Below the pieces are notes generated by a model. That model had not been told where the DNA came from. It searched no databases and worked only from the letters and a program-made list of their open reading frames with translations. 64,000 nt of DNA from Rhodothermia bacterium (GTDB lineage Bacteria > Bacteroidota > Rhodothermia > Rhodothermales > JAAAOL01), in NCBI GenBank assembly GCA_030428385.1, contig JAUIDY010000001.1, positions 14,279 through 78,278 on the forward strand, written 5' to 3'. Positions within the stretch are counted from its first letter, which is position 1. Every line of letters begins with the position of its first letter. This document shows, one piece after another, positions 5,686 through 49,722 of the stretch. The position numbers and the translations under genes were made by a program.

Positions 5686-5886
5686 GACGTTCCAAGCGTT
5701 GGTGAGTGGGGTGCATCGGGGGAACGAAAGACCGAGGTACGAAACAAGGAAGGCGTGGACCAGGGGAAAGGCGTACGCTGTCCAGGCTGACTTCCTCATC
5801 GTTCGGAGCGCTCCGTCAGGCATTCGCTCCATGTTGTTAAACTCCACGAATCGGCTTGCAAAGTCAATACCGCCGTCGGAGGCCAT

Positions 5887-10311: not shown

Positions 10312-10443
10312 GATGCGCCCCGGCATCGGCCATGCTGCAATACACCGCAGCGATGAGGAAGAGAGCTTCCTCAATCAAGCAAAAACTTAACAACGGCGCA
10401 ACCAACGGCCCTTCTTTTTAGGAAGGCGGGCGGCATTAGCTTC

Positions 10444-11703
10444 TCAATAATACAGCGCGATGCCAAACGTAGGGGCCACCGACGACTGCAAGCCCGTGTC
10501 GAGCAGCGAAAACATGGCACTGCCGAAGAGGTGCAGGTATTCGGTGGCGGCGATCTGAAGGCCCAGCGCGGCATTCATCGTGTGGTCGCGCTCCACCGCA
10601 CGGATGTTGCTCAGCACCAGCGGCGAAAGCAGGTTTTCGTCGATGTCATCCAGCGCGCCGTTGGCTTCCAGTTCCATCTCGCCCAGCACATCAAAGGCAA
10701 AGAAGATATTCGGGCCCACGCGCTGGTTAAACCCGGCGGCGATCTTCAGGCTGTTGCTGTCGTTGCCTTCCCAGAACTGCCCACCGATATTGAGGTACGG
10801 CTTAAAGCCATTGCCCACGGCATACTCGCCAATGAGCATGGCACGCACGCCGAAGTTGCCCGCGCCCAGCGCATTGCCTTCATCACGGCCCATCGGAATA
10901 CGTAAATCCACCAGCGCCGCAAGTCCTTGCGAAATGCGGTATTTGCCGCGTAGCGCCATCGTGCTCAGGTAGGCTTCGATGTCTGGAACGGTGGCGAGGT
11001 CTTCGTTCTCAATGGTGTCGATGCCCGGCAGGTCGAGTTTGACGTTGTTGCCCGCGAAGGTGTAGTCGATGGTGCGGAATTCCCCCCCATAGCGCAGCCC
11101 CGTGTCGTTGCCCAGGATCTCGAAGGTGGTGGGGGCTTGCTCGGTGCGCAGGCGCACGAAGGGCAGCGAGATGCCCAGATCGAAGCGCTCGGAGATGCCG
11201 TAGGTGCCGTAGAGCGTAAACACGGTGGCATCCACATCCAGCGGCATGTTCACACGGATCACGTCGCCGCCGTCGTCCTGCTGGAAGGCAAACTCCAACT
11301 CGCTCAGTTCGCGGCCCCGGATACGGGTCAGGTTAAAAAACGACACGTTCGATCCGACGAACACTTTCCCTTTGCCCACCGTGGCGCTGCTTTCCGTAAA
11401 GATGGGTGCGAACCCCGTGGCCGTGGTCACCAACTGCCCATCCAGAAACTCGGCTTCGAGGTTGGGCGGAGCCAAGGGAATGGCAGCGAGGTTGTCCTCA
11501 ATAAACGCCGTGATGCCGGGCGCCAGGGACAAGTTGGCGAGGTCGACAGCGCCATCGAAATGGCCCGACCCGTCGAACAGGCAGGCCGTGTACATGTTTT
11601 GCAGCGCCAGTTCAAGCTGCGAGGAAGAGGTACGTTGGGCCACCGCTACTTGGCTTGTACAAAGTAACAGAATGGCAAGGGTCAACAGGCGGACACGGAG
11701 CAT
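10444..11703 (-). CDS. Putative outer-membrane beta-barrel protein (family unassigned)
   Basis: Signal peptide MLRVRLLTLAILLLCTSQVAVAQ. Amphipathic strand pattern throughout, with an aromatic terminus ...TFGIALYY. Confidence 0.55.
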   Translation of the reverse strand: MLRVRLLTLAILLLCTSQVAVAQRTSSSQLELALQNMYTACLFDGSGHFDGAVDLANLSLAPGITAFIEDNLAAIPLAPPNLEAEFLDGQLVTTATGFAPIFTESSATVGKGKVFVGSNVSFFNLTRIRGRELSELEFAFQQDDGGDVIRVNMPLDVDATVFTLYGTYGISERFDLGISLPFVRLRTEQAPTTFEILGNDTGLRYGGEFRTIDYTFAGNNVKLDLPGIDTIENEDLATVPDIEAYLSTMALRGKYRISQGLAALVDLRIPMGRDEGNALGAGNFGVRAMLIGEYAVGNGFKPYLNIGGQFWEGNDSNSLKIAAGFNQRVGPNIFFAFDVLGEMELEANGALDDIDENLLSPLVLSNIRAVERDHTMNAALGLQIAATEYLHLFGSAMFSLLDTGLQSSVAPTFGIALYY

Positions 11704-11837: not shown

Positions 11838-13790
11838 CTAATTACTACCCACGTCAATGACCTGTGCGGTGCCGTTTCGGGCTTCCCAGACCCAGGTGGC
11901 CGGGAGCGGCACCGACTTCTGCCCACGCCCGCGTCCTTTCTGGGTATAATCAATGTGCAGGTTTACTTTCAGAAAACCCTGGCCCCCAACCACTTCCTGG
12001 TTGCGATAGTCTGGGCTGAACGTCGCCCCCGTGAGGTTAAACGTCCGGTGCAGCTGATCAATTTGCGGCTTGTAGAAGTTGCGCAGTGCCGTGGGGACGT
12101 TGGCCCAGTCGTCGTTCAAAATGGCGTTCTCCAACTGGTCCAGCAGCGGGTAGCTGGCGTCTTGCAGCGTCGTCAGCGGATCGACGGGCGGTGGTGCGGG
12201 TTCCGGCTCGGCCTCCACAGGAGGCGGAGACGCGGTAGTCGCTGCCGTGTTGTCGTCCGGCGGCTCGTTTTGAACAGGCTCGTTGCTCGTTTCATTCGCG
12301 GCGACGGGCAACGGGTCCGGGTCTGTGGACCGGTTCGGCGTTTCGTTTACCGGCGTGCGCACAGGCGTCGCCGTGTTTTGCGGGGCGGCGTCTTGCTGGC
12401 GCGGCGGCGGAGCGGCAGCAGGGGGTGGCGCTGTTTCGGTAGTCGTTTCGGGCACGGTAGACTCGGCCTCCGGCGGTGTGGCCGACGCCAGCAATTCTTC
12501 TTCCCCCGCAGGAAGCGTTGTTTCGGGAGAGGTTGTCTCCGGCAGCGTAGTCTCCGAAATGTTGATCGGCGGATCGCCACCCTCGGGCAAGAGCGAGATG
12601 GTAGCATACACCGCACCGACCAGCAACAGCAGCCCTCCGGCAAAAGCAGCATACCGCAGCCACGGTGTTGTATCGGTGCCTTTAGGTGCCCGCGTTTTCG
12701 TTCGGGTCTTGGTGCGCGTTTTGGTGCGGGTAAACGTCCCGTCTGACGGTAATGCCACCAGTTCAGCCTCGCAGACATCCAGGGCCGCCAGCATCGCCTG
12801 GGCATCGGCATACCGCTGGTCGCGGTCTTTCGCCAGCGCCTTCAGGATAAAGGCTTCGAGCGGGGCCGGAATGTCAGGCCGAAACGACGTCATCGGCGGG
12901 AAGTCCTGCTCCACAATGGCAAGCTGGACGGCAAAGGAGCCGCTTTCCTTGTTGAACGGCAACCGCCCCGTCAGAAGCTCATACAGCGTCATGCCGATGG
13001 AAAACAGGTCGCTGCGCTGGTCGAGCTTCGTGTCGCCTTTGATCTGTTCGGGCGACATATACGCCAGCGTGCCCGACTGCGTGAGCGTGCGGGTGGCGTC
13101 GTCTTGCTCGTAGAACTTCACCAGCCCAAAGTCCATCACCTTCACCGTTCCGTCCGCCGTCAGCATGATGTTGTGCGGCTTGATGTCGCGGTGCAGGATG
13201 CCACGTTCGTGTGCAAACTGGAACGCGACGAGCAACTGCCGGATCAGGGGGATGGCCTCGTCCCACGGCATCGCGCCCCGGTCGCGGATGCGCTCGGCCA
13301 GCGTCTGTCCCTCCACAAACTCCATCGTGATATGGTGCCCCACCGCCGATTGGTTCAGCGTATACACCGTCACGATGTTCGGGTGGTGGATGCGCGCCAT
13401 GGCCTTGGCTTCCAGTTGGAAACGCCGCAGCAATTCTTCGTTGCGCATCAGCGTCGGCGAGATCACCTTGAGGGCTTCGGCACGGTCGAGGCTGACGTTT
13501 TGCACCTTGTATACCATGCCCATGCCGCCCTGCCCGAGCAGTTTTTCATAGCGGTAGCCGTCCACCACCTCGCCCATTTGCGGCTGCACCATCATGGTGC
13601 CCGCACCAAAGACGCCGGCGGTGTTGCTCGAAAAGACGGGGCCGTGCGAGGCCAACCGTGTTTGCACGGCCTGAAGCAGATCCGTGTCTTCTTTGCAATG
13701 TGCGTGTAGAAACGCCTCGCGTTGCGCGGCAGGCAATGACGAGACGGCCTGGACAAGCGTGGTAATCTGGCTTTCCCGATGGGAATCCAT
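11838..13790 (-). CDS. Hanks-type Ser/Thr protein kinase with TM helix, Pro-rich linker and C-terminal extracytoplasmic domain
   Basis: Carries the GQGGMGMVYKV P-loop, HRDIKPHNIML catalytic loop, DFGLVK, and SPEQ. A TKTRTKTRTKTR tract precedes a TM segment (WLRYAAFAGGLLLLVGAVYATISLL), followed by a ~170-aa P/T/E/A-rich region. The start could instead be the upstream codon at 13874. Confidence 0.85.
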   Translation of the reverse strand: MDSHRESQITTLVQAVSSLPAAQREAFLHAHCKEDTDLLQAVQTRLASHGPVFSSNTAGVFGAGTMMVQPQMGEVVDGYRYEKLLGQGGMGMVYKVQNVSLDRAEALKVISPTLMRNEELLRRFQLEAKAMARIHHPNIVTVYTLNQSAVGHHITMEFVEGQTLAERIRDRGAMPWDEAIPLIRQLLVAFQFAHERGILHRDIKPHNIMLTADGTVKVMDFGLVKFYEQDDATRTLTQSGTLAYMSPEQIKGDTKLDQRSDLFSIGMTLYELLTGRLPFNKESGSFAVQLAIVEQDFPPMTSFRPDIPAPLEAFILKALAKDRDQRYADAQAMLAALDVCEAELVALPSDGTFTRTKTRTKTRTKTRAPKGTDTTPWLRYAAFAGGLLLLVGAVYATISLLPEGGDPPINISETTLPETTSPETTLPAGEEELLASATPPEAESTVPETTTETAPPPAAAPPPRQQDAAPQNTATPVRTPVNETPNRSTDPDPLPVAANETSNEPVQNEPPDDNTAATTASPPPVEAEPEPAPPPVDPLTTLQDASYPLLDQLENAILNDDWANVPTALRNFYKPQIDQLHRTFNLTGATFSPDYRNQEVVGGQGFLKVNLHIDYTQKGRGRGQKSVPLPATWVWEARNGTAQVIDVGSN

Positions 13791-13951
13791 GGCGGACGCA
13801 GAAGAAGCTATGGCAGAAGCGTTGGGCAAAGTAAACGCATGAATGGGTGGGAGTTTCACGTCCCCCACCCTCAACTCAACAAAGGGCTATCAAAGAGGAT
13901 AGCGAAAAACCCACGCGGGACGGTCCATGCGGCAAACAGGGCGCCTCACTA

Positions 13952-22907: not shown

Positions 22908-23585
22908 CTACATCTGCTCGGTGTCGTAGAACAGGTTGACGTTGCTGACGTGCGCGGCCTTGCCGAGTTCTTTGGTTAGCGCCTCGGTGTGCTCTTTCTT
23001 GCGGAGATCCACGAAGAATGTCAGGTCCAGCATGTCGCTGTCGCCCACCGAGCGCGCGTTGATGAGCTTGTAGCGCTTGGCGTATTTGTCGAGCACGGGC
23101 AGGTACGTCGCCGAGCCGTTTTGCTGCGGCGCATCGTACGAGAGTTGCAACACAAACGCCTCCTTGTGGATGACGGCGTAGTTGCTCTTGGTGGTGACGG
23201 CAATCACGGCGCAGATGCTGGCGGTGCCCATGAGGGCCACGGCGTACATGCCCACACCGGCGGCCATGCCTACCGCCAGCGCGAAGAACACAAACACGAT
23301 GTCTTGCGGATCTTTCACGGCCGTCCGAAACCGGATGATTGACATGGCCCCGACGAGGCCGAAGGCACGGGCGAGGTTGTTGCCAATCGCGAGCATCACC
23401 ACCGCCGTAATCATCGCCAGAAAAATCATTGAGCGGACGAAGCTGGGCGCGTAGTCCGAGCCCCGGTAGGTCCAGCGATATGTCAGCGAGATAGCGAGTC
23501 CACACACGAGTGCCACCAGCAGCCCCTTCACCACATCGCCGGTGTGAATCGCGTAATCTTGTATCGACTGAAACTCTTGCAACAT
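22908..23585 (-). CDS. DUF4956-family membrane protein
   Basis: Four TM segments plus the LARAFGLVGAMSIIRFRTAVKDPQDIVFVFFALAVGMAAG block typical of DUF4956, followed by a soluble C-terminal ~90 aa. Confidence 0.7.
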   Translation of the reverse strand: MLQEFQSIQDYAIHTGDVVKGLLVALVCGLAISLTYRWTYRGSDYAPSFVRSMIFLAMITAVVMLAIGNNLARAFGLVGAMSIIRFRTAVKDPQDIVFVFFALAVGMAAGVGMYAVALMGTASICAVIAVTTKSNYAVIHKEAFVLQLSYDAPQQNGSATYLPVLDKYAKRYKLINARSVGDSDMLDLTFFVDLRKKEHTEALTKELGKAAHVSNVNLFYDTEQM

Positions 23586-23600
23586 AGGGGGGAAACGTCC

Positions 23601-24437
23601 TCAAACTTCCATCGATGAAGGGCGCAATATATTGCTTCGCGCGAACACGGTGTGGGCTTTCTCCGCGTCCAGGTGTTTCACCACGGGCGGGGCTTTGGCC
23701 AGCACCGCGGCCTTGTGGTCCGTATGCCAGCCATTTAACTCCGCGCAGATGCAGTACTTGGACAAGGCGCGACGGCGGAGGTTATATTTCGCCAGCATCG
23801 GCAGCAGCCACGCCGGGAACCGGGTGTTGTACTTCACTTCGAGGATGAAGTGGCCCGGAAACGCATTCCGCAGGCCATCATCTGTAAAAAGTGCGTCGAG
23901 GGGCAGGTAGGAAGCCCCCCGCAGGTTGCGGTCGAAGGTGATGCGCAGGGTGGCATCGAAGCGCCCGTGGAAGGCTTCGCGCTCATAAACGGTGGTGTGA
24001 GTAGGCCGCAGTGCATACCGCCGCACATGGTAGAAGAACCGCCGCGCATCTTCGATCGCCTCGGCGTAGTGACCGCCGAGACGAATGTATTGCTTCACAT
24101 CACCGGTGGCGAACAACGCGCCAAGGTCCTCAAACGCGAGCGGGGCGCGGTTTTTTGAGACCTGGTTTTCCACCTTGCGCTTGATCTCGAGAAAGACCGG
24201 GTGGCCGTCTTCAAGCTGGTTGTAGGCCCGCACGCGCAGCTTGCGCCGCACCTTGATGCCCGCCTGCTTCTCGTGGTAATACCGGAGCGAGGCGGTGTCA
24301 AGATAGATGCTGCGGACGGTGTACCCGCGCTCCTCGTAGCCATGCCCATGCCGGTCCAATTCCACAAACGGCGCAATGGCAGCCCGGAGGTCAGGCAGCG
24401 CGGCGTTGGGAACGAGGTATTTATGTTCGGCACGCAT
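23601..24437 (-). CDS. VTC-domain protein (polyphosphate-polymerase-type triphosphate tunnel metalloenzyme)
   Basis: MRAEHKYLVP..., YTVRSIYLDT, KVRRKLRVRAY, FLEIKRK and ILEVKY strands alternate basic and acidic residues, as in the Vtc4 catalytic tunnel fold. ATG 24437 lies 4 nt after the upstream stop. Confidence 0.8.
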   Translation of the reverse strand: MRAEHKYLVPNAALPDLRAAIAPFVELDRHGHGYEERGYTVRSIYLDTASLRYYHEKQAGIKVRRKLRVRAYNQLEDGHPVFLEIKRKVENQVSKNRAPLAFEDLGALFATGDVKQYIRLGGHYAEAIEDARRFFYHVRRYALRPTHTTVYEREAFHGRFDATLRITFDRNLRGASYLPLDALFTDDGLRNAFPGHFILEVKYNTRFPAWLLPMLAKYNLRRRALSKYCICAELNGWHTDHKAAVLAKAPPVVKHLDAEKAHTVFARSNILRPSSMEV

Positions 24438-24441
24438 CAGG

Positions 24442-25506
24442 TCAGGACAGCGGGGCTTGAAACCAGCGGCGGACATACTGGGCCAGCGTCAGCGTCCCGC
24501 CCGCAATCTGGCACCGCGTCACGGTTCCGGGTAGCAGCCGAGGGCCGTCCTCGATGAGCGCCGTCACCAGCACCACCGATTGGCCGTTTAACTGATGGAT
24601 CGTGTCGCCCAGTTGATGCACCTGCGCCGCGATGGGCTCCGCCAACCCGGCTACCTGCACCGTCACGTCGGCACCCACCGTCAGGTGCAGGTGCTCCTCC
24701 CAGCGGACAGGCATAACGACAACGAACGTGTCCATGTGATGCACGGTAAGCAGCGTGTCGCTGCCAAACGACCGCACGACAGTGCCCGCAATCGGTGCCG
24801 TAATGGTGTACAAGCTGAGGCGGTTGTTCAGCGTGGCGATGTCATTGCGCAGCGCCTCCACTTCGGTGCGCGTCAGGCTGAGTTGTTCGGGTTTTTCGCC
24901 CGTTTGCAGTGCATCCAGCCGTGCCTGCGCCGCTGCGATGTTGGCCAGAAAGACGCGGTGCTGGCTTTCCGCAATTTCCAGTTCTTGCTCCGAGATCAGC
25001 GCCTGTGCACGCAGGGCCCGCTGGCGTTCGAGGATGTTTTCGTGCTGTGTGGCTTCTTCCTGGGCCTGCGCCAGTTGCATCTGCGCCTCGTTGACCACGG
25101 CAGCCTTTTCGCCCGTGGTTTGCACGTCCAGCATCGCCAGCGTGGCTGCCAGTTCCCCGGTGAGTTGCGTCAGTTCGCGCTCTGTGGTGCTGGAAAAAAT
25201 GGTCGCGATGGTGTCACCTTCGGCCACGTCCACGTCGGGCTTGAGGCCGGGCTGGAGCGTGAGTTGCACAAAGTCGCCCCGCTCGAAGCGGTTGAGCGCG
25301 TAGCTCTGCACGGTGCCCTCGGCATGGTCGTGCAACATCCCGCCAATGGAGCCCGCGCCATCGCGCACCAAGGTCCACGACTGGGCGGGCCATACCTTGC
25401 CCGTCACTTCGATGGTATAGGCCACCTCCGAGGGAAGTAACAAAACACCGACGACCACCAAAACAGCGAGGACGCCAGCCACTACATAACGCACCATGTC
25501 CTGCAA
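24442..25506 (-). CDS. HlyD-family membrane-fusion (periplasmic adaptor) protein
   Basis: Has an N-terminal TM (YVVAGVLAVLVVVGVLLL), a lipoyl-like VAEGDTIATI, a ~110-aa coiled coil and an ITAPIAGTVV beta-barrel motif. Confidence 0.7.
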   Translation of the reverse strand: MQDMVRYVVAGVLAVLVVVGVLLLPSEVAYTIEVTGKVWPAQSWTLVRDGAGSIGGMLHDHAEGTVQSYALNRFERGDFVQLTLQPGLKPDVDVAEGDTIATIFSSTTERELTQLTGELAATLAMLDVQTTGEKAAVVNEAQMQLAQAQEEATQHENILERQRALRAQALISEQELEIAESQHRVFLANIAAAQARLDALQTGEKPEQLSLTRTEVEALRNDIATLNNRLSLYTITAPIAGTVVRSFGSDTLLTVHHMDTFVVVMPVRWEEHLHLTVGADVTVQVAGLAEPIAAQVHQLGDTIHQLNGQSVVLVTALIEDGPRLLPGTVTRCQIAGGTLTLAQYVRRWFQAPLS

Positions 25507-25565
25507 TCAATCGCTCCATAAAACAACCGAAAGGCCCGTGCGGAAGCTTTCGGACGCGGGGGGTG

Positions 25566-25660
25566 TTAACATAAAGTTAAAGTTAATGTAATACCGTGGA
25601 AAAAGATAAGATCACATGGAGAGCCTGTTAAAAGGAGCCCCGGCGGTGGGATCACATGGC
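25566..25660. promoter_or_regulatory. AT-rich divergent control region with direct repeats
   Basis: gttaacataaagttaaagttaatgtaat (tandem agttaa) is followed by two copies of gatcacatgg at 25610-25619 and 25650-25659, 40 nt apart. The region lies between the divergent HlyD-like and CotH genes. Confidence 0.25.
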
Positions 25661-25745
25661 AGATTCCCTCCACTAATAAAACACAATGCCTATCTTCAGC
25701 ACCTTTTGTTCGTTTTGTCTCCCCCACCCCACCCCCGTTTCGACC

Positions 25746-28700
25746 ATGCGTACCCTGGTCTTTAGCCTGCTCCTTCTTGCTGTTGTTGGTGAGGTCCAGG
25801 CACAACATCCGGTGCTGAATGAACTGATGGCCAGCAACACCGAAACGCTGGCCGACGATGATGGCGACTTCTCCGACTGGATCGAGCTGTATAATCCCAC
25901 GGGGGCGGACATCTTGCTAGGAGGCTATGGTCTTTCGGACGAAGAGGGCGAGCCGTTTAAGTGGGTTATCCCGTCCCAAACGTTGACTGCGGGTGACTAT
26001 GCCCTCTTTTTCGCCTCGGCGAAAGACCGGGCGGGCACCAACGGGCTATGGGAAACGGTGATCGACTGGGGCGATGCGTGGCGCTACCGGGCCGGGACCT
26101 CCGAGCCGCCTGCCACCTGGACCGACCCCGGCTTTGACGACGCGGGCTGGAACACCGGCCCCAGCGGGTTCGGCTACGGCGACGGCGATGACGCCACCCC
26201 CTTCTCCTCCAGTACCCTCGTGCATTACGTCCGCACGACCTTCTCCATCGACGACCCACAGGCGGTGAATGGGGCACTGTTTCATGTGCACTATGATGAT
26301 GCGTTTGTGGCGTACCTGAACGGCGTCGAGATCGCGCGGGCTGGCATCGGCACTCCCGGCGTGCGCCCCACCTATCAGGAGGGCGCCCTCACCGATCACG
26401 AGGCGCAAAACGTGCTGGGCCAGCTTCCCGACGAGTTTGAGATCGACACGGACCTGCTGCAACCGGGCGAAAATGTGCTGGCTGTGCAGATCCACAACGT
26501 CTCCACCACGTCGTCCGACCTGTCGCTGATCCCGTTTCTTTCGCTCGGCCTGTCTACACCGCCCGCTTCGCCGCGTGGCCCGTCAACGCACCTCGTTCCC
26601 TTTTTCGAGCGGCTGCCCCATGCCAACTTCAAGCTGAGCAGCGGCGGCGAGACGCTGTATCTCACCGGCCCCGATGGCGTGCGGGTGGATGAAATCGAGA
26701 TCCCGGCGCTGCCGCCGGATGTGTCGTATGGCCGCACCCCGGATGGCAGCGCCGCGTGGACGTTGTTAACCACCGCTACGCCCCAAGCCCCCAACCCCTC
26801 GACGGGCATCGCCGACATTTCGGCGGCACCGGCTTTTGACCAGGCTTCGGGCTTTTATGCCAATGCCATCAGCGTGCAACTCTCCGCCGATCCCCCCGAG
26901 GCCCCGATCTATTTTACCCTGGATGGATCGGAGCCGACGATGACCAACAGCGCCCGCTACACCCAGCCGCTGACGCTGTCCGAAACGACGGTGATCCGCG
27001 CGCGCACCTTTACACCGGGGCTCATCCCCAGCCCCATCACCACCCACACCTATCTCGTTGGCGAGACCCAAAACCTGCCCACCATCGCCATCTCCACCGA
27101 CCCGGAAAACCTGTGGGACTGGAATACCGGCATTTACGTCCTGGGGCCGAATGCTGACCCCCAGCCGCCGAATCGAGGCGCGAATTTCTGGCAGGACTGG
27201 GAAATCCCGGTGCATGTGGCGTTTTACGAAACCGACGGCGAACTGGCTTTCAGCACCGACGCGGGAGCCCGCATCGTGGGCGGCTACACCCGCAGTTCCC
27301 CCCAGAAGTCCCTCGCCCTCTTCGCGCGTGGACGGTATGGCGACTCGGCCTTCGAACACCAGATCTTCCCCGACCGACCGTATGACTCGTACCAGGCCGT
27401 TACGCTGCGCAACGCGGGCAACGACTGGAGCCGGGCGCATTTCCGGGATGGGTTTATGCAAAGCCTCGTCACCGAAGCCGACATCGACGGGCTGGCGTTT
27501 CGCCCGGCGGTGGTGTTCCTCAATGGCGAATACTGGGGCATCCAGAACCTGCGCGAAAAACCCAACGAGCATTATCTGGCCTCGCTGCACGACGTGGACG
27601 CCGATGCCCTCGACCTGCTCGAAGGCAATGCCGATGTGATCGAAGGAGACAACGCCGACTACCTCGCCCTGCTCAACTTTATGGCCACCAGCAATATGGC
27701 CTCGGACGATGTGTATGCAGAGGTGCGCCGCCAGATCGACATCAACAACTTCATCGACTACCAGGTCACCCAGATCTTTATCAACAACCGCGACTGGCCC
27801 GGCAACAACATCAAGTTCTGGCGGCCCCATGAGGACGGGCGCTGGCGGTGGATCCTGTTCGACACCGACTTTGGCTTTGGCATTTATGGCAACCTCGAAT
27901 ACGAGGAAAACGGGATCGCCTTCGCCACCGACCCCAACGGTCCCGATTGGCCGAATCCGCCGTGGTCTACCTTTGTGCTGCGCCGCCTGCTCGAAAACCC
28001 CGACTTCGAACGGGCCTTCATTAACCGCTTCGCCGACTTCCTGAACGTCCATTTTACCACCGACCGGATGGAGGAAGCACTTGATGCCATCATCGACACG
28101 ATGGACGAGGAAATCCCGCGCCACATGGCCCGTTGGGGCGCACAGGGTGGACCATGGGAATCTCACATCAATGTCATCCGCACCTTTGCCCACCAGCGAC
28201 GGGCCCCGCTGCTGCGCCACTGGCGCAACTACTTCGCCCTGGCCGCCCTGCAACCCATCACGCTCGATGTGGCGACCGCGGGCACCGGCACCATCCGCAT
28301 CAACCGCGAAATGGTGACGGCCTTTCCGTGGACGGGCGACTATTTCCCCCGCGTCCCGGTGACCCTCACGGCCGAGCCTGCCCCCGGCTATCGGTTTGTG
28401 GAATGGTCGGGCGCGGCCCAAAGCACTGACCGCGTCCTCACCATCGACCCGGTTAACTCCCCCTCGGTAACCGCCCATTTTGCGCCTATCTCAGGAAGTG
28501 CCGCCCCGGTGGTGATCAACGAAATCCAGTACCACCCCCCGGATGACGCCGACACAGGCGACTGGGTGGAACTGCTCAACCGCAGCCCCGAAGCCTTCGA
28601 CCTCTCGGGCTGGGCGCTGATGGACGCTCAGGAAGACCATGCTTTCACCCTCCCGGAGGGTACCACCATTGCACCCAAAAGCTACCTTGTCCTGACCCAG

Positions 28701-29282
28701 GAGCCCGACGCTTTCGCGGCGGTCCACCCCGACGTGCCCTCCCTCGGCGGTTGGGACTTCGGATTTAGCCAGGCGGGCGACCATGTGCGGATTTTGGATG
28801 CCGACGGCGTGCTGGTAGACTCGCTGACCTTCGATGACGACACGCCGTGGCCCAGCGAGGCTGATGGCGACGGCCCCTCGCTCGAACTCATCGAATCGGC
28901 CCATGACAATGCCAACCCGGCCAACTGGAGTTTTTCGCGGGTTATGGGCGGCACACCGGGCGCCCTCAACACCGTTGGCGTTCCGGTAGACGCCACACCC
29001 CAGCCCACCTTGCCCCAGACCTACACGCTGGAAGCCGCTTACCCCAACCCCTTCCGCGACCACGTCACCTTCAGCTACAGTCTCCCCGAAGCCGGACGCG
29101 TGGAACTGCGAGTTTATAACACCCTGGGGCAACAGGTGGCGACGCTGATCAACACCGACCAAGCCGCCGGAAGACAGCGTATTCGCTGGAGCGCCGCCGA
29201 CGCCGCACCGGGGCTCTACCTCGTCCAGCTTCGGGTCGCGGGTACGCTCAAGGCCAACCGCAGCGTGCTTCGGATTCGCTAA
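25746..29282 (+). CDS. T9SS-secreted CotH-family kinase with two lamin-tail domains and a chitobiase/hexosaminidase-C-like domain
   Basis: ATG 25746 gives the signal MRTLVFSLLLLAVVGEVQAQ. Lamin-tail-domain blocks are LNELMASNT...FSDWIELYNPTGADILLGGYGLSD and VVINEIQYHPPDDADTGDWVELLN...LSGWALMD. The CotH core is LRNAGNDWSRAHFRDGFMQSLV...FLNGEYWGIQNLREK. The T9SS C-terminal domain is AAYPNPFRDHVTFSY...GLYLVQL. Confidence 0.85.
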   Translation: MRTLVFSLLLLAVVGEVQAQHPVLNELMASNTETLADDDGDFSDWIELYNPTGADILLGGYGLSDEEGEPFKWVIPSQTLTAGDYALFFASAKDRAGTNGLWETVIDWGDAWRYRAGTSEPPATWTDPGFDDAGWNTGPSGFGYGDGDDATPFSSSTLVHYVRTTFSIDDPQAVNGALFHVHYDDAFVAYLNGVEIARAGIGTPGVRPTYQEGALTDHEAQNVLGQLPDEFEIDTDLLQPGENVLAVQIHNVSTTSSDLSLIPFLSLGLSTPPASPRGPSTHLVPFFERLPHANFKLSSGGETLYLTGPDGVRVDEIEIPALPPDVSYGRTPDGSAAWTLLTTATPQAPNPSTGIADISAAPAFDQASGFYANAISVQLSADPPEAPIYFTLDGSEPTMTNSARYTQPLTLSETTVIRARTFTPGLIPSPITTHTYLVGETQNLPTIAISTDPENLWDWNTGIYVLGPNADPQPPNRGANFWQDWEIPVHVAFYETDGELAFSTDAGARIVGGYTRSSPQKSLALFARGRYGDSAFEHQIFPDRPYDSYQAVTLRNAGNDWSRAHFRDGFMQSLVTEADIDGLAFRPAVVFLNGEYWGIQNLREKPNEHYLASLHDVDADALDLLEGNADVIEGDNADYLALLNFMATSNMASDDVYAEVRRQIDINNFIDYQVTQIFINNRDWPGNNIKFWRPHEDGRWRWILFDTDFGFGIYGNLEYEENGIAFATDPNGPDWPNPPWSTFVLRRLLENPDFERAFINRFADFLNVHFTTDRMEEALDAIIDTMDEEIPRHMARWGAQGGPWESHINVIRTFAHQRRAPLLRHWRNYFALAALQPITLDVATAGTGTIRINREMVTAFPWTGDYFPRVPVTLTAEPAPGYRFVEWSGAAQSTDRVLTIDPVNSPSVTAHFAPISGSAAPVVINEIQYHPPDDADTGDWVELLNRSPEAFDLSGWALMDAQEDHAFTLPEGTTIAPKSYLVLTQEPDAFAAVHPDVPSLGGWDFGFSQAGDHVRILDADGVLVDSLTFDDDTPWPSEADGDGPSLELIESAHDNANPANWSFSRVMGGTPGALNTVGVPVDATPQPTLPQTYTLEAAYPNPFRDHVTFSYSLPEAGRVELRVYNTLGQQVATLINTDQAAGRQRIRWSAADAAPGLYLVQLRVAGTLKANRSVLRIR

Positions 29283-29362
29283 AAGGGCAAGTAGGCCTTG
29301 GAACGCAGGTCTAAAACCGGTCGTTTGGCACCCTTCCTTGCTCCCCGCCTTACCCATCCCTG

Positions 29363-30142
29363 TTGTCCATGCGCACCGCGCTTCGTTCCCTCTGGGTCTG
29401 GACTGCCATCATCACCCTGATTGTGGTGTGGCTGCCGCTGCTTGCCCTCGTCCGGCTCTTCGACCGCGACCCCGCCCGCTATCGTACCGGGCGCTGGTTT
29501 CGGCGGCTCGGCATGATGATGACCAAGATTAATCCGGCGTGGCAAATCCACATCACGGGCGACTTCCCCGACAACCCGCGCCATCCGTATATCGTCGTCA
29601 GCAACCACCAGTCGAACGCCGACATCCCCCTGATTAGCTGCCTGCCGTGGGAGATGAAATGGGTAGCGAAAGCCGAATTGTTCAAGCTGCCCGTGGTGGG
29701 CTGGATGATGCGGCTGGCGGGCGACATCGAGGTGGACCGCAAGGACAAGCGCAGCCGGGCACAGGTGTTTATCACGGCGCGGCAGTACCTGAAGGACCGC
29801 TGCTCGGTGATGTTTTTCCCCGAAGGCACCCGCTCGCGTGACGGGCGTGTGCTGCCCTTCACCGATGGCGCATTCCGCATCGCCATCAAGACCAAGGTGC
29901 CTATCCTGCCGCTGGTGGTAGAGGGCTCGCAGAACGCCCTGCCGAAACACGACTGGAAGTTCGGCACCATCGAACACATCCGCCTGCATGTCTTCCCGCC
30001 CATTCCCACCGACGGCCTCACCGGCAACGATGCCGAGGCGCTGCGCGAGCAGGTGCGCCAGCAGATCCTTGACCAACTCGCCGCGTGGCGCGGCGTAGCG
30101 CCCGACGCCGTGGACGCACAGGCCAAAACACCCAATGCCTGA
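29363..30142 (+). CDS. plsC: 1-acyl-sn-glycerol-3-phosphate acyltransferase family protein
   Basis: HxxxxD motif VSNHQSNADI, FPEGTRSRDG, and an N-terminal TM. Confidence 0.85.
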   Translation: MSMRTALRSLWVWTAIITLIVVWLPLLALVRLFDRDPARYRTGRWFRRLGMMMTKINPAWQIHITGDFPDNPRHPYIVVSNHQSNADIPLISCLPWEMKWVAKAELFKLPVVGWMMRLAGDIEVDRKDKRSRAQVFITARQYLKDRCSVMFFPEGTRSRDGRVLPFTDGAFRIAIKTKVPILPLVVEGSQNALPKHDWKFGTIEHIRLHVFPPIPTDGLTGNDAEALREQVRQQILDQLAAWRGVAPDAVDAQAKTPNA

Positions 30143-30223
30143 CGCCGCTTGCTCGTAACTCCGCTGCCAGGCCCCGCGTAGGGAGGGCGAACGTGTTGTT
30201 TCAATCTTTCGCCCCACCGATTT

Positions 30224-30673
30224 ATGGAACCGACTCCTGCCCTTCGCGCTTTTTTGCTGAACCTCGGCTATGTGGCGTTGCCGCTCAAAAAAAGCCCCCT
30301 CAACCATTTCGAACTACGCGGCACCCTCAACAACCAGCCCGTCTTGTTGATGCTGGACACGGGAGCGTCTCACACCGGCCTTGACGAACAAAGCGCCGAG
30401 CGGCTCCATCTTCTGTCCGAAGCCTCCGATGAAAAAGCGGGTGGGTTAGGCAACTCCGAGATGACGGTTTCGCAGTGTGTGATTGATACCTTAACACTTG
30501 GCGAATTGCGTTTTGAATCCGTCCCGGCCTTCGTCGCCGACCTCTCCCATGTGAATGCCGCCTTGGCCGTCGCCAACGCCGACTCGGTTGATGGTATCTT
30601 GGGGGCCGACTTGCTGAACCACCACGGCGCCATTATTGATTATGGCAGCAGCACCCTGTACCTCAAGCCGTAG
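30224..30673 (+). CDS. Retropepsin-like (clan AA) aspartic protease
   Basis: LLMLDTGASHTGL active-site motif and an ILGADLL block in a 149-aa single-lobe protein. Confidence 0.6.
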   Translation: MEPTPALRAFLLNLGYVALPLKKSPLNHFELRGTLNNQPVLLMLDTGASHTGLDEQSAERLHLLSEASDEKAGGLGNSEMTVSQCVIDTLTLGELRFESVPAFVADLSHVNAALAVANADSVDGILGADLLNHHGAIIDYGSSTLYLKP

Positions 30674-30864
30674 CAGATGGCCGTCGTGTGGGACAGGTGT
30701 TTTTGGGCGCAGACAGTGTTACATTGAAGGACGTGCCCTGAACCGTCGGTATTTTAGTTCATCGCGAACGAACCGATGTTTTTAGCTGCACCTTCTGAAG
30801 CTTTTCCGCTTTTTGTCTTGCATTCCTGTTTCTTCCTTTTCTCGCTCTAACCCAGCCACACGCC

Positions 30865-32874
30865 ATGCCCCAACGCTTACTGCTTTGCTTTGCGCTGTTT
30901 CTGTCCGTCACGTTGACGGCCCAGGGACAAGCCTGGATTAACGAACTGCACTACGACAATACCGGCGGTGATACCGGCGAGTTTATTGAAGTTGCCGGGG
31001 TTGCCGGAACGGACCTCACCGGCTGGTCGCTGGCACTCTACAATGGGGACGGGTCTGCCACCTATGACACCGAACCCCTTGCCGGAACCATCCCTGACCA
31101 GGGTGGTGGCTTTGGGACCCTGTCTTTTGCTATCGCCCCCATTCAAAATGGCGCACCCGATGGGCTCGCGCTTTGTGACGGCGTCGGCGTCGTGGTGAGT
31201 GGTACCACCACGCAGTTCCTCAGCTACGAAGGTGTGATTACGGCATCAGGAGGCTGCGCCGATGGCCTCACAAGCACCGACATCGGGGTTGATGAAGACC
31301 CGGCTCCTCCCATCGGCTCTTCGCTGGGCCTCGAAGGCACGGGCACCTCGTATGACGACTTCACCTGGACCACCTTCGCCGATGACTCGCCGGGTGCAGT
31401 GAATGCCGGTCAGTCGTTTGGTGTTGGCCCGCTGCCCACCACCGATGCCGGTATCTGGTTCAATGAGGCGCACTACCAAGACACCGATGCTGTAACGACC
31501 ACCTTCCTAGAGTTGGTGGCGGATGGAGGCGGCTTAGGGCCTGCCATGGGCGCTCTCCCCGAAAACCCCGACCTCACCTTGAACAAAACAAGCAGCCCAA
31601 TTCCTGTTGTTCCGGGTGTGTCGGTGGTGCTTTATGAAGCCGCAACGGGAATGATTGCCACCCTGCCGCCAGCTCTGGGAGGCGGCCCGGCTATCCTTCC
31701 CCTGGGCTTCTTTACCCCTGGAGAAACCATTGGCGACTTCACGTTCCTCACCTTCGGCGGCGACACGGAATTCCTCTTTGCCGCTGCGGGAGATGCCCTT
31801 GCCCTGTGCTTTGATCTCGGTTTGCCCGGTGAAGCCATCCTCGAAAGTGGCGGCGCCGTGCAGTTCTTCAGCCAACTCGGCACCACAACCGCTGCCGTAG
31901 GCTGTGCCGCAGGCCGCACCAGCACCGACCTCGGCGTCTCCGAAGACACCTCCACCCTGCCGGGCGCCTCGATCGGCCTCACGGATGGCCCCGGCGCAGG
32001 CATGGACTTTGGCGACTTCGTTCCGACAACCTTCCCCAATACCGATATCCCACGGGCCACCCCTGGCAGTCCCAACTTCTACCAGTCGTTCGCCATCACC
32101 AACGAGTGCCCTGCACCGTTTGGCATCGATGACTTCAAAAGTGGGCCCAACAACAAGGAATTCGTCTCCTTCCTCACCAACCCCGCCACCGACCTGACCT
32201 CTCCCCAACTGTATCTGGTGATGTATGACGGCGCGACGGGAGACGCCTATTTCAGCACCACGCTCGATGGCACAACCGATGGCGCTGGGGGCTATGTGAT
32301 TGGGGCTAAAAAAGTGATCCCCCGGGACCAAAACCTGCCCCCCGGCACCATCCAGCCCGGCCCTGATGGCATTGCGGTGCTCACCCGCGATGTGCCGCTG
32401 GGCTCGAGTGTCTATACCCTCACTTTCCCCAATGAAGTCTGCGCGTACCTGTACTACCAGAACAAAACCACCATTCTGGTCAACTACGGAACGCCCGGAC
32501 CGACCAAAAAACCGAGCGACGTTGGGTTTGACCTACTGGCCTTCCTGACCGCCCAACAGCAGCAGGAGGCCCCGCTCGCTTTGTTGGAAGAAGACACCGC
32601 GACGCTGCCGACTAACTTTACCCTGGATCAGAACTACCCGAACCCGTTCAACCCCACCACCGCGATACAATTCGCGCTGCCCGAAGCCGCCGATGTCTCG
32701 CTGGTGGTATATGACATGCTCGGGCGGGCTGTTCAAGAACTCGTTGCCCGCCCCATGGAAGCGGGCTCCTACACCGTCTCGTTCGATGCCCAGGGCCTGC
32801 CAAGTGGCATGTACATCTATCGCCTGACAGCGGGCGGCTTCTCTCAAACCAAACGCATGGTCCTGCTGAAGTAG
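30865..32874 (+). CDS. T9SS-secreted protein with two N-terminal lamin-tail-like domains
   Basis: Signal MPQRLLLCFALFLSVTLTAQGQ. AWINELHYDNTGGDTGEFIEVAG...LTGWSLALYNG is followed by a second copy IWFNEAHYQD...FLELV. The T9SS C-terminal domain is NYPNPFNPTTAIQFAL...GMYIYRL...MVLLK. Confidence 0.7.
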   Translation: MPQRLLLCFALFLSVTLTAQGQAWINELHYDNTGGDTGEFIEVAGVAGTDLTGWSLALYNGDGSATYDTEPLAGTIPDQGGGFGTLSFAIAPIQNGAPDGLALCDGVGVVVSGTTTQFLSYEGVITASGGCADGLTSTDIGVDEDPAPPIGSSLGLEGTGTSYDDFTWTTFADDSPGAVNAGQSFGVGPLPTTDAGIWFNEAHYQDTDAVTTTFLELVADGGGLGPAMGALPENPDLTLNKTSSPIPVVPGVSVVLYEAATGMIATLPPALGGGPAILPLGFFTPGETIGDFTFLTFGGDTEFLFAAAGDALALCFDLGLPGEAILESGGAVQFFSQLGTTTAAVGCAAGRTSTDLGVSEDTSTLPGASIGLTDGPGAGMDFGDFVPTTFPNTDIPRATPGSPNFYQSFAITNECPAPFGIDDFKSGPNNKEFVSFLTNPATDLTSPQLYLVMYDGATGDAYFSTTLDGTTDGAGGYVIGAKKVIPRDQNLPPGTIQPGPDGIAVLTRDVPLGSSVYTLTFPNEVCAYLYYQNKTTILVNYGTPGPTKKPSDVGFDLLAFLTAQQQQEAPLALLEEDTATLPTNFTLDQNYPNPFNPTTAIQFALPEAADVSLVVYDMLGRAVQELVARPMEAGSYTVSFDAQGLPSGMYIYRLTAGGFSQTKRMVLLK

Positions 32875-33119: not shown

Positions 33120-34400
33120 ATGTATGTGCACTCTCCGATCCACGCCGCCCCCTACAGGGGCCTGCTCCGTCTCAAGTGGAACCACGCCTTTCTGATTCTA
33201 CTTGGTGCCTTCTTCGTTTTCAGCCTGGCAGGCTGCGATCTTTTTCCTGGAGACGAGGACGAGCAAGAACTCACCCTTGCCGAAACCGACGACCCGCTGG
33301 CTCCCTTCGCCGCCGCCCATAGCGATGGCAGCAACCTGGTTGCCCTCTCAAGCGGGGGGCTCGCAGGTGTGAACGGGGTGGTGTATACCACCTCGGATGG
33401 GCAGAAAGTGGGCCTGGAATTGGACAGCCAGGGCTTGCCCCAGACCCTCCACATTGGCGGCGCGGTGGTGTTGTTCGAGAATTTCCGGGCGGACGAAGTA
33501 GACCTTGCCGTGATTTTGCCCGACGGCGAAATTGAAATCGTACGCGACGCCCCGCTGGGAGACGCGGGGTCGGCCCAACTCGCAGCGTTGCTTGTGGCGA
33601 GCAAAAACGCGTCTACCTTCACCGACGCCGTGAAAGCCCTCGGACTCTCGCTCAACATTGCGGTATGTACCGTGGGCACCCCTGTTGCGCTAGCGACAGG
33701 CGTGGGAGCCGTAGCGGGTACCGGCCTTGCGCTTACCTGTGCCAGTGCCCTGCTGGCCGTCCTCCAAGAAAGTGGCAACCTCGAAGGTACTGTGGCCGAC
33801 ATTGCAGGCATTGAGATCGGGGCCTTTGCGGCGGCCTTTGATGCCATCGGGTGCAACCCCAGCATCACCAGCTTTGTGAACTGCTTACAAGCCCTCGTCG
33901 GATCCATCAACGTCTACATCGACACCCGCGACCTCGCCAATGAATCTATCGACGGGCAGGTGCAGTTGGCGCGGGGCGTCTTGCGTACCGGCGCAGGCGA
34001 AGTGAAGGTGACGCTCACCTGGAACAACACCGCCGACCTGGACCTGTGGGTGACGGACCCCTGTGGCGAAGCCATTGGCTGGAGCCATCGCACCTCGCAA
34101 TCGGGGGGGCAACTGGATGTGGATGACACCAGCGGCTTCGGTCCGGAGAACATCTTCTGGCTCAACGGCACGGCCCCGCCCGGAAGCTATCAGGTGGAGG
34201 TGGATCATTTTTCCGGCCCTGGCCCCTCTACGTTCGACATCTTCATCCAGCATCCCGGCGACCCCATCACACAACTACGGGGCAGTATCAACACGGACGA
34301 ACGGCGCACCATCACCAACTTTACCGTGACCGGTACGAGCGGCGTGTGTGGAGCTACCCTTCCTAAAACGCCCGCCCCGGCGACCAAACCGACGCGTTGA
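33120..34400 (+). CDS. Lipoprotein with C-terminal DUF2135/YfaP-like domain
   Basis: Lipobox FVFSLAGC. The C-terminus VTLTWNNTADLDLWVTDPCGEAIGW...GGQLDVDDTSGFGPENIFW...PGSYQVEVDHF resembles the DUF2135 signature (from memory). Confidence 0.55.
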   Translation: MYVHSPIHAAPYRGLLRLKWNHAFLILLGAFFVFSLAGCDLFPGDEDEQELTLAETDDPLAPFAAAHSDGSNLVALSSGGLAGVNGVVYTTSDGQKVGLELDSQGLPQTLHIGGAVVLFENFRADEVDLAVILPDGEIEIVRDAPLGDAGSAQLAALLVASKNASTFTDAVKALGLSLNIAVCTVGTPVALATGVGAVAGTGLALTCASALLAVLQESGNLEGTVADIAGIEIGAFAAAFDAIGCNPSITSFVNCLQALVGSINVYIDTRDLANESIDGQVQLARGVLRTGAGEVKVTLTWNNTADLDLWVTDPCGEAIGWSHRTSQSGGQLDVDDTSGFGPENIFWLNGTAPPGSYQVEVDHFSGPGPSTFDIFIQHPGDPITQLRGSINTDERRTITNFTVTGTSGVCGATLPKTPAPATKPTR

Positions 34401-48978: not shown

Positions 48979-49722
48979 ATGTCTCGTTTCCTGTTTGCAC
49001 TTCTCCTTCTTTTCCCCGGCACTGCTATGGCTCAGTCCTTTTCCGGCACTTATGCCGGTACCCTCAACGGCACCCCTGCCACCCTCCTGCTTCAAGAAGA
49101 CGCCGCCGTGGTGCAAGGCCGCGTCGATGTCAGCGGCTACCAGTATGTGCTCCAGGCCCAGGTTCAAAACAACGCGGGCATCGGCATCTTGCAAGACGTG
49201 CAAACGGGCGGCGTCCTGAACGTGGAGTTGGCCCCGATGCCGCAGGGCGTAACGCTGGTGCTCGTCAGCCAAAACGGCTTCACGGGCCAGATGCAGCGGA
49301 CCGCACTTGCCTTTACTCGCAGCGAGGGCACCATTACAGACACCGCGCCACCTTCCAGTTCGACACCAGCCGCAGTCGGTGGCGCGCTCGACCCGCTTAT
49401 GGTGGGCGTATGGGCGCATCAGGAGATCTACAACAGCGGCGACTTCAGCGGCACCACGCAAGAAACTATGCAAGTCCACCCCGATGGCACCTTTGTCCTC
49501 GGTGGCGGGCAGGTAAGCGTGAGTGGAAGCTTTTTCTCGGGCAACACCGGAGGCGGTGGCGAAACCTTGCACGGCTTCTGGCAAACGCAGGGCAACATCG
49601 TCTACGTGCGCGGGCAAGGCCAAACGCAATGGGTGCCCTTCGCCCGGTATTACATCGAAAACGGGCGTATGCTGCTTACCTTCGGCGATGGCTCGCGACA
49701 GGTCTGGTACCGGCAGGGCTAA
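48979..49722 (+). CDS. Secreted hypothetical protein
   Basis: Signal MSRFLFALLLLFPGTAMAQ. Composition is beta-rich and Gly/Thr/Gln-rich, and no family was recognised. The stop overlaps the stop of the convergent kinase gene by 4 nt. Confidence 0.6.
   Translation: MSRFLFALLLLFPGTAMAQSFSGTYAGTLNGTPATLLLQEDAAVVQGRVDVSGYQYVLQAQVQNNAGIGILQDVQTGGVLNVELAPMPQGVTLVLVSQNGFTGQMQRTALAFTRSEGTITDTAPPSSSTPAAVGGALDPLMVGVWAHQEIYNSGDFSGTTQETMQVHPDGTFVLGGGQVSVSGSFFSGNTGGGGETLHGFWQTQGNIVYVRGQGQTQWVPFARYYIENGRMLLTFGDGSRQVWYRQG

Follow-up and report, generated by a model that had tools for sequence, protein, structure and literature searches.

A conserved adaptor–VTC–DUF4956 operon beside the gene for a secreted CotH kinase in a Rhodothermia bacterium: a candidate for polyphosphate synthesis and export

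Why should the gene for a putative polyphosphate polymerase lie back to back with the gene for a secreted kinase? This question is raised by a stretch of 64 kb of DNA from a Rhodothermia bacterium (contig JAUIDY010000001.1; this whole stretch is referred to as the window), in which genes for a VTC-domain protein and a DUF4956 membrane protein are separated by a spacer region from a divergently transcribed gene for a CotH kinase. The window has a GC content of about 61%, and its nearest protein relatives are labelled Rhodothermales. A first-pass annotation of this DNA had described a 'VTC operon' that faces a block of genes headed by CotH, and all genes that it named were recovered in their places when the open reading frames (ORFs) were listed and scanned against Pfam and NCBIfam. 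The operon as such exists, but it consists of three genes, and the one that adjoins the spacer is not VTC but a gene that had gone unnamed and encodes a periplasmic adaptor (Table 1). The reading that we tentatively prefer, and that we hold with slightly more doubt than confidence, is that this adaptor–VTC–DUF4956 operon specifies a polyphosphate (polyP) synthase which exports its product across the cell envelope, the secreted CotH kinase being an optional partner.

The VTC protein scores 140 bits against the Pfam VTC model, for which the cutoff is 23 bits. VTC is its sole Pfam domain, and neither an SPX domain nor a transmembrane domain was found in it. The ORF extends to position 24476, and the start that yields a protein of 278 residues is backed by homologues and by an independent gene call. 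A profile built from 20 sequences of the VTC family matches the structure of the Vtc4 catalytic domain (3g3q) with an E-value of 2.8e-13. In Vtc4, triphosphate and Mn are bound by K200, R264, R266, K281, Y359, R361, E426, S457 and K458 (VTC cryo-EM preprint). HMMER pairs the first seven of these residues with K6, R68, R70, K86, Y151, R153 and E200 of the window protein, each of them invariant or conserved to at least 90% across the VTC family. The counterparts of S457 and K458 are S226 and K227 in an invariant SKY motif, an equivalence drawn from motif and spacing, as the HMMER alignment ends 4-5 residues earlier; K458 is missing from the inactive subunits Vtc2 and Vtc3 (VTC cryo-EM preprint). 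Judged from its sequence, the protein resembles the catalytic tunnel domain of the Vtc4 polyP polymerase, would be located in the cytoplasm and looks competent. An exhaustive profile search returned 12,261 VTC cluster representatives at 50% identity, and no natural fusion of VTC with DUF4956 was present among the matches listed.

The conservation of the operon was assessed in a genome scan with a VTC alignment, which gave 568 confirmed loci. The best 80 of these were analysed by iterative profile searches of the ORFs in all six frames; they derive from Rhodothermales, Ignavibacteriales, Bacteroidales, Chitinophagales, Calditrichia, Planctomycetota, Krumholzibacteriota, Latescibacterota, Zhuqueibacter and Anaerolineae. 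DUF4956 was found directly 3' of VTC in 77 of the 80 VTC loci. The adaptor gene lies on the same strand as VTC and immediately 5' of it in 67 loci, and it is nearby but displaced in one more (L048). The gene order of the window was also observed in an independent Logan assembly (L081). A Bacteroidales locus (L070, positions 7546-10765) is an exception to the operon: CotH is followed directly by VTC, and neither the adaptor nor DUF4956 was detected. Two of the hosts that carry the operon are cultured, namely Alkalitalea saponilacus DSM 24412 (L058) and Natronoflexus pectinivorans DSM 24179 (L066).

Besides CotH, which is considered below, one further family accompanies the operon repeatedly. 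In 10 of the 80 loci (L010, L027, L033, L035, L046, L048, L051, L061, L065 and L080), the gene that comes next after DUF4956 encodes a lipoprotein of about 270 residues, with matches to SdiA-regulated and phytase-like beta-propeller families, and an eleventh locus (L053) has a homologue upstream of the operon. Apart from this lipoprotein, clustering of all ORFs in the 80 loci revealed no further recurrent family. Conserved small ORFs were seen in these loci as well, and they were dismissed as shadow ORFs lying across VTC and DUF4956.

Export is suggested most strongly by the adaptor gene, which the first-pass annotation had overlooked. Its product gives weak matches to eight NCBIfam adaptor families, of which HlyD (PRK03598) is the best with an E-value of 2.4e-15 and which also include RND_mfp, EmrA, DevB and MacA. 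The protein stays below every curated family cutoff (56.5 bits versus 393 for PRK03598, and 19.8 versus 22.2 for Pfam HlyD_3). An AlphaFold (AF2) model based on 20 homologues, with a mean predicted confidence (pLDDT) of 84, displays an N-terminal transmembrane helix, beta domains and an alpha-hairpin of about 125 residues. When this model was compared with the PDB, Foldseek matched it over about 330 columns to MacA (3e-15) and EmrA (1e-13), and also to AcrA and MexA. By its model and the Foldseek matches, the protein has the fold of the membrane-anchored adaptors in tripartite exporters, but no curated family includes it. An ABC, MFS or RND transporter that could be served by such an adaptor is not encoded adjacent to it, its operon partners being VTC and DUF4956.

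The distribution of the adaptor gene may be related to envelope type. Chloroflexota and Firmicutes are generally devoid of a typical outer membrane. The adaptor gene was present in 68 of the 69 evaluable loci from outside the Chloroflexota versus none of the 8 evaluable Chloroflexota loci (Fisher p-value of 4e-10), and no adaptor is listed among the accessory genes described for the pel-linked operons of Gram-positive bacteria (PMC7112168; PMC12345266). This pattern fits a component that is needed only where a periplasm and an outer membrane must be crossed.

Some adaptor genes have unusual surroundings. In two Rhodothermales loci, transposase-like ORFs are located just upstream of the adaptor gene (L001, about 4980-6110; L002, about 7240-8340), and the adaptor ORF of L001 is shortened to 305 residues from stop to stop, or to 177 residues from the first Met. 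In a close Rhodothermales relative with 70% VTC identity (L166 and L167), a protein of 672 residues with a PPDK_N (pyruvate phosphate dikinase nucleotide-binding) domain is encoded directly upstream of the adaptor gene and on the same strand (6849-8867), where it takes the place that CotH occupies in other genomes.

The third gene of the operon encodes the DUF4956 protein, which also has a weak Pfam match to MgtC. In its AF2 model (pLDDT 77), five helices lie within residues 15-133 and a beta-alpha-beta domain spans residues 144-220. Only this C-terminal domain was matched by Foldseek, as a domain of the ACT type (ACT/ferredoxin-like). The most conserved motif of the protein is membrane-proximal and contains the invariant basic residues R85, R87 and K91.

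These features bring up an explanation that involves no export at all, in which VTC and DUF4956 would make or regulate cytoplasmic polyP or phosphate homeostasis in the manner of MgtC-type regulators, the adaptor would do something other than export, and CotH would merely share regulation with the operon, for example under phosphate stress. Such a function would suit the distant membership of DUF4956 in the MgtC family and its ACT domain of regulatory type, as well as the soluble nature of the VTC protein, the lack of a linked outer-membrane factor and the published view that polyP may stay in the cytoplasm. We nevertheless regard this explanation as unlikely: a cytoplasmic process offers no obvious role to a full-length MacA/EmrA-type adaptor, whose gene is strictly conserved and often overlapping, and both recurrent neighbours of the operon, CotH and the phytase-like lipoprotein, are exported.

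The kinase encoded opposite the operon, CotH1, contains in this order a signal peptide, a lamin-tail domain (LTD), a CHB_HEX_C/Fn3_assoc region, the CotH domain, another LTD and a Por_Secre_tail domain, which is the C-terminal sorting domain of the type IX secretion system (T9SS). The CotH domain covers residues of about 480-880 in the numbering of the ORF of 1198 residues that begins at 25686, and it scores 172 bits in Pfam. A single-sequence phmmer search of the PDB with this domain gave nothing relevant; a profile of 17 CotH sequences was needed, and it matches Bacillus cereus CotH (5jd9) with an E-value of 1.7e-40. The CotH of B. subtilis is inactivated by mutation at the catalytic D228 or the metal-binding D251, and both Asp residues are kept in CotH1, as D703 and D726, respectively. 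Inspection of the sequence showed N-termini that resemble signal peptides in T9SS proteins of the window, whose Por_Secre_tail scores exceed the cutoff of 27 bits (31.8 for CotH1, 37.8 for a T9SS cargo protein of 669 residues, and 35.3-35.6 for the second CotH kinase, CotH2). By a crude rule, 33 of the 36 CotH ORFs adjacent to the operon have a signal-peptide-like N-terminus; of the remaining three, one has a signal peptide that the rule missed, one has a membrane anchor and one is a fragment. The remark in the first-pass annotation that CotH acts outside the cytoplasm, where ATP is scarce, is thus borne out to the extent that effectively all VTC-linked CotH proteins carry export signals.

Relatives of CotH1 with the same architecture, of about 1185 residues, are encoded inside the operon in Ignavibacteriales (profile E-values down to 1e-180). 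CotH2, which is composed of a CotH domain, an LTD and the T9SS C-terminal domain, is encoded about 16 kb from the VTC operon of the window. Over its full length it shares 46% identity with the CotH encoded directly upstream of VTC in the Bacteroidales locus L070, and it is possible that CotH2 represents a second partner of the operon.

The linkage of CotH and VTC is not confined to this genome. Of the 80 VTC loci, 24 contain CotH; where the sequence reaches 5 kb or more to both sides, the proportion is 20 of 45. In 20 of the 24 loci with CotH, the nearest CotH ORF is less than 150 bp away from the operon, and in 22 of the 24 it is on the same strand. Random placement in the flanks predicts about 1.7% of CotH ORFs this close (binomial p-value of about 3e-32, with the loci treated as independent although many are related Ignavibacteriales). 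On the same strand, CotH was found downstream or upstream of the operon; the other arrangements are convergent (L007 and L048) or, as in the window, divergent, in two Anaerolineae loci (L020 and L068) CotH occurs without the adaptor, and in L070 it is joined by VTC alone. The adjacency of CotH and VTC is therefore confirmed as real: it is far above chance and is seen in at least six arrangements and in several phyla. The CotH-VTC-DUF4956 neighbourhood that the first-pass annotation had pointed to, together with a proposal for its statistical testing, is indeed non-random. The variety of arrangements speaks for a functional connection and against mere inheritance of gene order.

It could still be argued that the position of CotH beside the operon is a coincidence without functional meaning in this particular genome, where the divergent arrangement is confined to the window and an identical Logan contig. 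In most Rhodothermales relatives, CotH is missing from the 10 kb around the operon, as is the case for L165 and L166 with 70% VTC identity, and varied T9SS cargo proteins are encoded near operons. We consider such a coincidence highly improbable. In other lineages the adjacency exceeds chance, and in Ignavibacteriales proteins resembling CotH1 are encoded inside the operon. CotH is also found near the operon in two other Rhodothermales loci, namely L007 and L168 (67% VTC identity), the latter having a CotH-plus-LTD pair 4-9.6 kb upstream, and the VTC-associated CotH2 is encoded in the same window.

The linkage was also viewed from the side of CotH. A broader CotH alignment was too diverse for a metagenome scan and was replaced by a narrower alignment of the CotH domain, which gave 80 loci at 38-51% identity and, accordingly, a sample biased to close relatives. 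VTC and/or DUF4956 were present in 10 of these 80 CotH loci; among those that extend 3 kb or more to both sides, the proportion is 7 of 23. The three genes of the operon are the most recurrent neighbours of CotH, with 7 loci each, followed by GH3 with 6. The link between CotH and the operon is thus mutual but optional.

These counts bear on the idea that exported polyP replaces ATP as the phosphoryl donor of the secreted CotH. The periplasm and the medium are not known to have a supply of ATP, the VTC-linked CotH proteins appear to be exported and to have kept their catalytic and metal-binding Asp residues, and no neighbour of this CotH subfamily is more conserved than the operon. However, the fold of CotH is protein-kinase-like and uses ATP in Bacillus. 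Moreover, about 70% of the loci of this subfamily with adequate flanks have no VTC operon and would need another donor, so the idea cannot be general for the subfamily, and more than half of the operons lack a CotH in their vicinity. On these grounds, polyP as the donor of CotH strikes us as quite improbable. The stronger combination, an envelope-spanning polyP secretion system whose exported product is used by a T9SS-secreted CotH for ATP-independent extracellular phosphorylation, would be a very doubtful proposition.

Several observations connect the gene set with secreted polymers. In two independent metagenome assemblies, a protein (P0407) was found in which a family-2 glycosyltransferase (GT2) is fused to VTC (L163, 3251-5407; L164, 607-2763). 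A DUF2334 gene lies upstream of the gene for this fusion, and DUF4956 and then an LTD-CHB_HEX_C-CotH protein are encoded downstream. The presence of the GT2-VTC fusion beside DUF4956 and an LTD-containing CotH ties the gene set to a secreted polymer. Genes of the GH3 and GH5 families surround CotH in several loci. In streptococci, clostridia and bifidobacteria, the genes for CotH, a polyP polymerase and DUF4956 are contiguous with pelDEADAFG, and mutations in the CotH-like or DUF4956 genes lower the amount of Pel and Pel-dependent aggregation (Whitfield 2020, PMC7112168; mBio 2025, PMC12345266). The NELoc-2 locus of Clostridium perfringens combines VTC and CotH with a glycosyltransferase and a polysaccharide deacetylase (PMC11677781). 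Taken together, the contiguity with pel, the mutant phenotypes, NELoc-2, the GT2-VTC fusion and the GH3 and GH5 surroundings would fit a model in which polyP or phosphoryl groups are provided for an extracellular polysaccharide, notably for cationic de-N-acetylated polymers, while CotH modifies the matrix and any donor function is secondary. For the present operon we judge this model rather unlikely, as no polysaccharide synthase or pel gene is present among the annotated ORFs of the window and none recurs in the 80 VTC loci, and the pairing of polymers by charge is an inference only.

In the eukaryotic VTC complex, polyP synthesis is coupled to membrane transit through a positively lined pore (VTC cryo-EM preprint), and polyP is released by some bacteria. 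Established here are the identities of the genes, the retention of catalytic residues, the adaptor fold, the conserved operon and the non-random linkage to CotH. Beyond these, we infer a comparable scheme for the bacterial system, in which polyP synthesis, export and a role for CotH would be linked as follows. The VTC enzyme would build polyP from ATP at the inner membrane. DUF4956 would act as membrane anchor or conduit in lieu of the Vtc1-type channel that the complex has in eukaryotes. Where the cell has two membranes, the polymer would be guided by the adaptor through the periplasm to an outer-membrane channel encoded elsewhere. The T9SS-secreted CotH, divergently encoded here and a frequent but optional companion, may act outside the cell on or together with the exported polyanion. 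The genes for the PlsC-type acyltransferase, the retropepsin-like protease and the 669-residue protein that follow CotH1 would be accidental neighbours.

It should be noted that several points weigh against this preferred reading of the operon as a polyP exporter. The MgtC-family relatives of DUF4956 are regulators rather than transporters, and for the membrane part of DUF4956 itself Foldseek retrieved neither a channel nor a transporter. An outer-membrane factor was not among the scanned ORFs of the window, and none is recurrent in the 80 VTC loci, although such a factor may be encoded elsewhere. The missing adaptor in Chloroflexota could reflect the history of that lineage rather than its envelope type. 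CotH is missing within about 9 kb of more than half of the operons, among them those of most close Rhodothermales relatives, and the operon must therefore work without an adjacent CotH. Lastly, the literature searched contains no demonstration that polyP is made by a bacterial VTC-domain protein, and the authors of the work on Streptococcus intermedius suggested that polyP may stay in the cytoplasm.

The other genes downstream of CotH1 do not appear to belong to the system. In the first-pass annotation, PlsC, the retropepsin-like protease and the 669-residue protein were placed in one plus-strand block with CotH, but none of them is a conserved partner of the operon. Homologues of PlsC were found in 3 of the 80 VTC loci, in differing contexts and never adjacent, and homologues of the retropepsin-like protease in none of the 80. 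The same 0 of 80 holds for NIF3 and for the ORF of 426 residues beyond the block. We therefore judge PlsC and the retropepsin-like protease to be bystanders. An N-terminal homologue of the 669-residue protein was present in only 1 of 160 loci (L045), and this protein is probably a bystander as well. Its description as a second lamin-tail-like T9SS protein holds for the T9SS domain, while the LTD match is weak (E = 0.002) and below the Pfam cutoff. A possible orthologue was considered in the LTD protein encoded beside CotH in L168, and the two proteins turned out not to be orthologous. Other T9SS cargo proteins encoded near operons (M23-like, Kelch, leucine-rich repeat, GH5, BNR and 4xLTD) were likewise set aside as specific partners, as they are heterogeneous.

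The spacer between the adaptor gene and CotH1 had been viewed as an AT-rich control region of 240 nt. Its length is in fact 248 nt, and its GC content of 0.49, compared with 0.61 for the window, falls within the range of 0.43-0.62 measured for other intergenic gaps, which leaves nothing exceptional in its composition. A scan for promoters and terminators between positions 22600 and 33200 gave no more consensus matches than shuffled sequence, and it is uninformative on the co-transcription of CotH, PlsC, the protease and the 669-residue protein. The spacer contains an exact direct repeat of 10 nt, GATCACATGG, at 25610-25619 and 25650-25659, that is 40 nt apart, which could be a regulator site or a product of chance.

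The genes that flank the module are unremarkable and include NIF3 and those for a TonB-dependent receptor, adenylosuccinate lyase and a DNA-alkylation repair protein. Among the larger ORFs scanned in the window, there was no pel gene, exopolysaccharide synthase or TolC-type gene, and no scanned ORF matched DUF4832. Elsewhere in the window, two Ser/Thr kinases of the eukaryotic type (Pkinase) are encoded on the minus strand (11838-13874 and 49719-52409), one of which has many TPR repeats; together with the two CotH genes, this amounts to four kinase genes within 64 kb. In addition, a T9SS cargo protein of 1495 residues with leucine-rich repeats and right-handed beta-helix/NosD repeats is encoded at 5887-10374, also on the minus strand.

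Table 1. Features of the operon and its surroundings, in window coordinates, with the main basis for each assignment.
Feature	Position	Strand	Basis or remark
DUF4956 membrane protein, 225 aa	22908-23585	-	PF16316, E = 2.6e-16
VTC-domain protein, 278 aa	23601-24437	-	PF09359, E = 9e-41
Periplasmic adaptor, 351 aa, first gene of the operon	24442-25497	-	MacA/EmrA fold (modelled)
Divergent intergenic spacer, 248 nt	25498-25745	.	Between adaptor gene and CotH1
Secreted CotH kinase 1 (CotH1), 1178 aa from the signal-peptide Met	25746-29282	+	Pfam matches
PlsC-type acyltransferase	~29369-30142	+	Pfam and NCBIfam matches
Retropepsin-like aspartic protease	30224-30673	+	Pfam Asp_protease_2, E = 6e-17
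T9SS cargo protein, 669 aa	30865-32874	+	Por_Secre_tail, E = 2.4e-9
ORF of 426 aa just after the 669-aa T9SS protein	33120-34400	+	No Pfam or NCBIfam match
Second secreted CotH kinase (CotH2), 784 aa from the signal-peptide Met	41405-43759	+	Pfam CotH, E = 4e-42

To our knowledge, no route for the export of polyP from bacteria is known. The combination of a Vtc4-like polymerase, a membrane protein and an adaptor of the tripartite-pump type would provide a concrete and testable candidate for such a route. The pairing with CotH bears on how kinases that are secreted outside the cell are supplied with a phosphoryl donor, and the presence of the adaptor in lineages with two membranes versus its lack in Chloroflexota offers a natural comparison. 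Should the operon only manage cytoplasmic polyP, it would nevertheless place DUF4956 and bacterial VTC proteins in a functional context for the first time. The triad of CotH, VTC and DUF4956 is already published for Gram-positive bacteria (PMC7112168, PMC12345266, PMC11677781). In the literature searched, the fixed adaptor gene, its distribution over lineages and the T9SS- and LTD-containing form of CotH in Rhodothermales, Ignavibacteriales and Bacteroidota appear to be undescribed.

A comparison with known systems shows which parts of this arrangement are familiar. With the eukaryotic VTC complex (Vtc4 with Vtc3 or Vtc2, and Vtc1) the operon shares the tunnel domain, the conserved ligand residues and the coupling of the enzyme to a membrane protein. 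In contrast to the eukaryotic proteins, the bacterial VTC protein, a putative polymerase, has neither SPX nor the Vtc1-type transmembrane domain, its membrane partner is the unrelated and separate DUF4956, an adaptor is added, and the setting would be the cell envelope instead of a vacuole. The Gram-positive pel gene sets and NELoc-2 have the same three families adjacent to each other and a secreted CotH. Unlike these, the window lacks pel, DUF4832 and other polysaccharide genes and has the adaptor as the fixed first gene of the operon, and its CotH is divergent and equipped with LTDs and a T9SS sorting domain, in a two-membraned, Rhodothermales-like host.

The adaptor resembles those of MacAB-TolC and EmrAB-TolC in its full-length fold, including the N-terminal anchor and the long alpha-hairpin, whereas its partners here are a small DUF4956 protein and a soluble polymerase, with no linked outer-membrane factor. 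CotH of the Bacillus spore coat works in the mother cell, a compartment supplied with ATP. The window protein has the same CotH kinase domain with the equivalents of D228 and D251 kept, but it is large, multi-domain and exported, and no CotB or CotG substrates are encoded nearby. Lastly, in alginate synthesis by Alg8 and Alg44, the latter has a periplasmic domain that resembles membrane-fusion proteins. Although the polymer of the present operon would be inorganic and the locus has no dedicated outer-membrane porin or cyclic di-GMP receptor, the plan of such synthase-dependent secretion, a polymerase at the inner membrane with an adaptor-like periplasmic guide, is the same, and a direct fusion of GT2 to VTC does exist.

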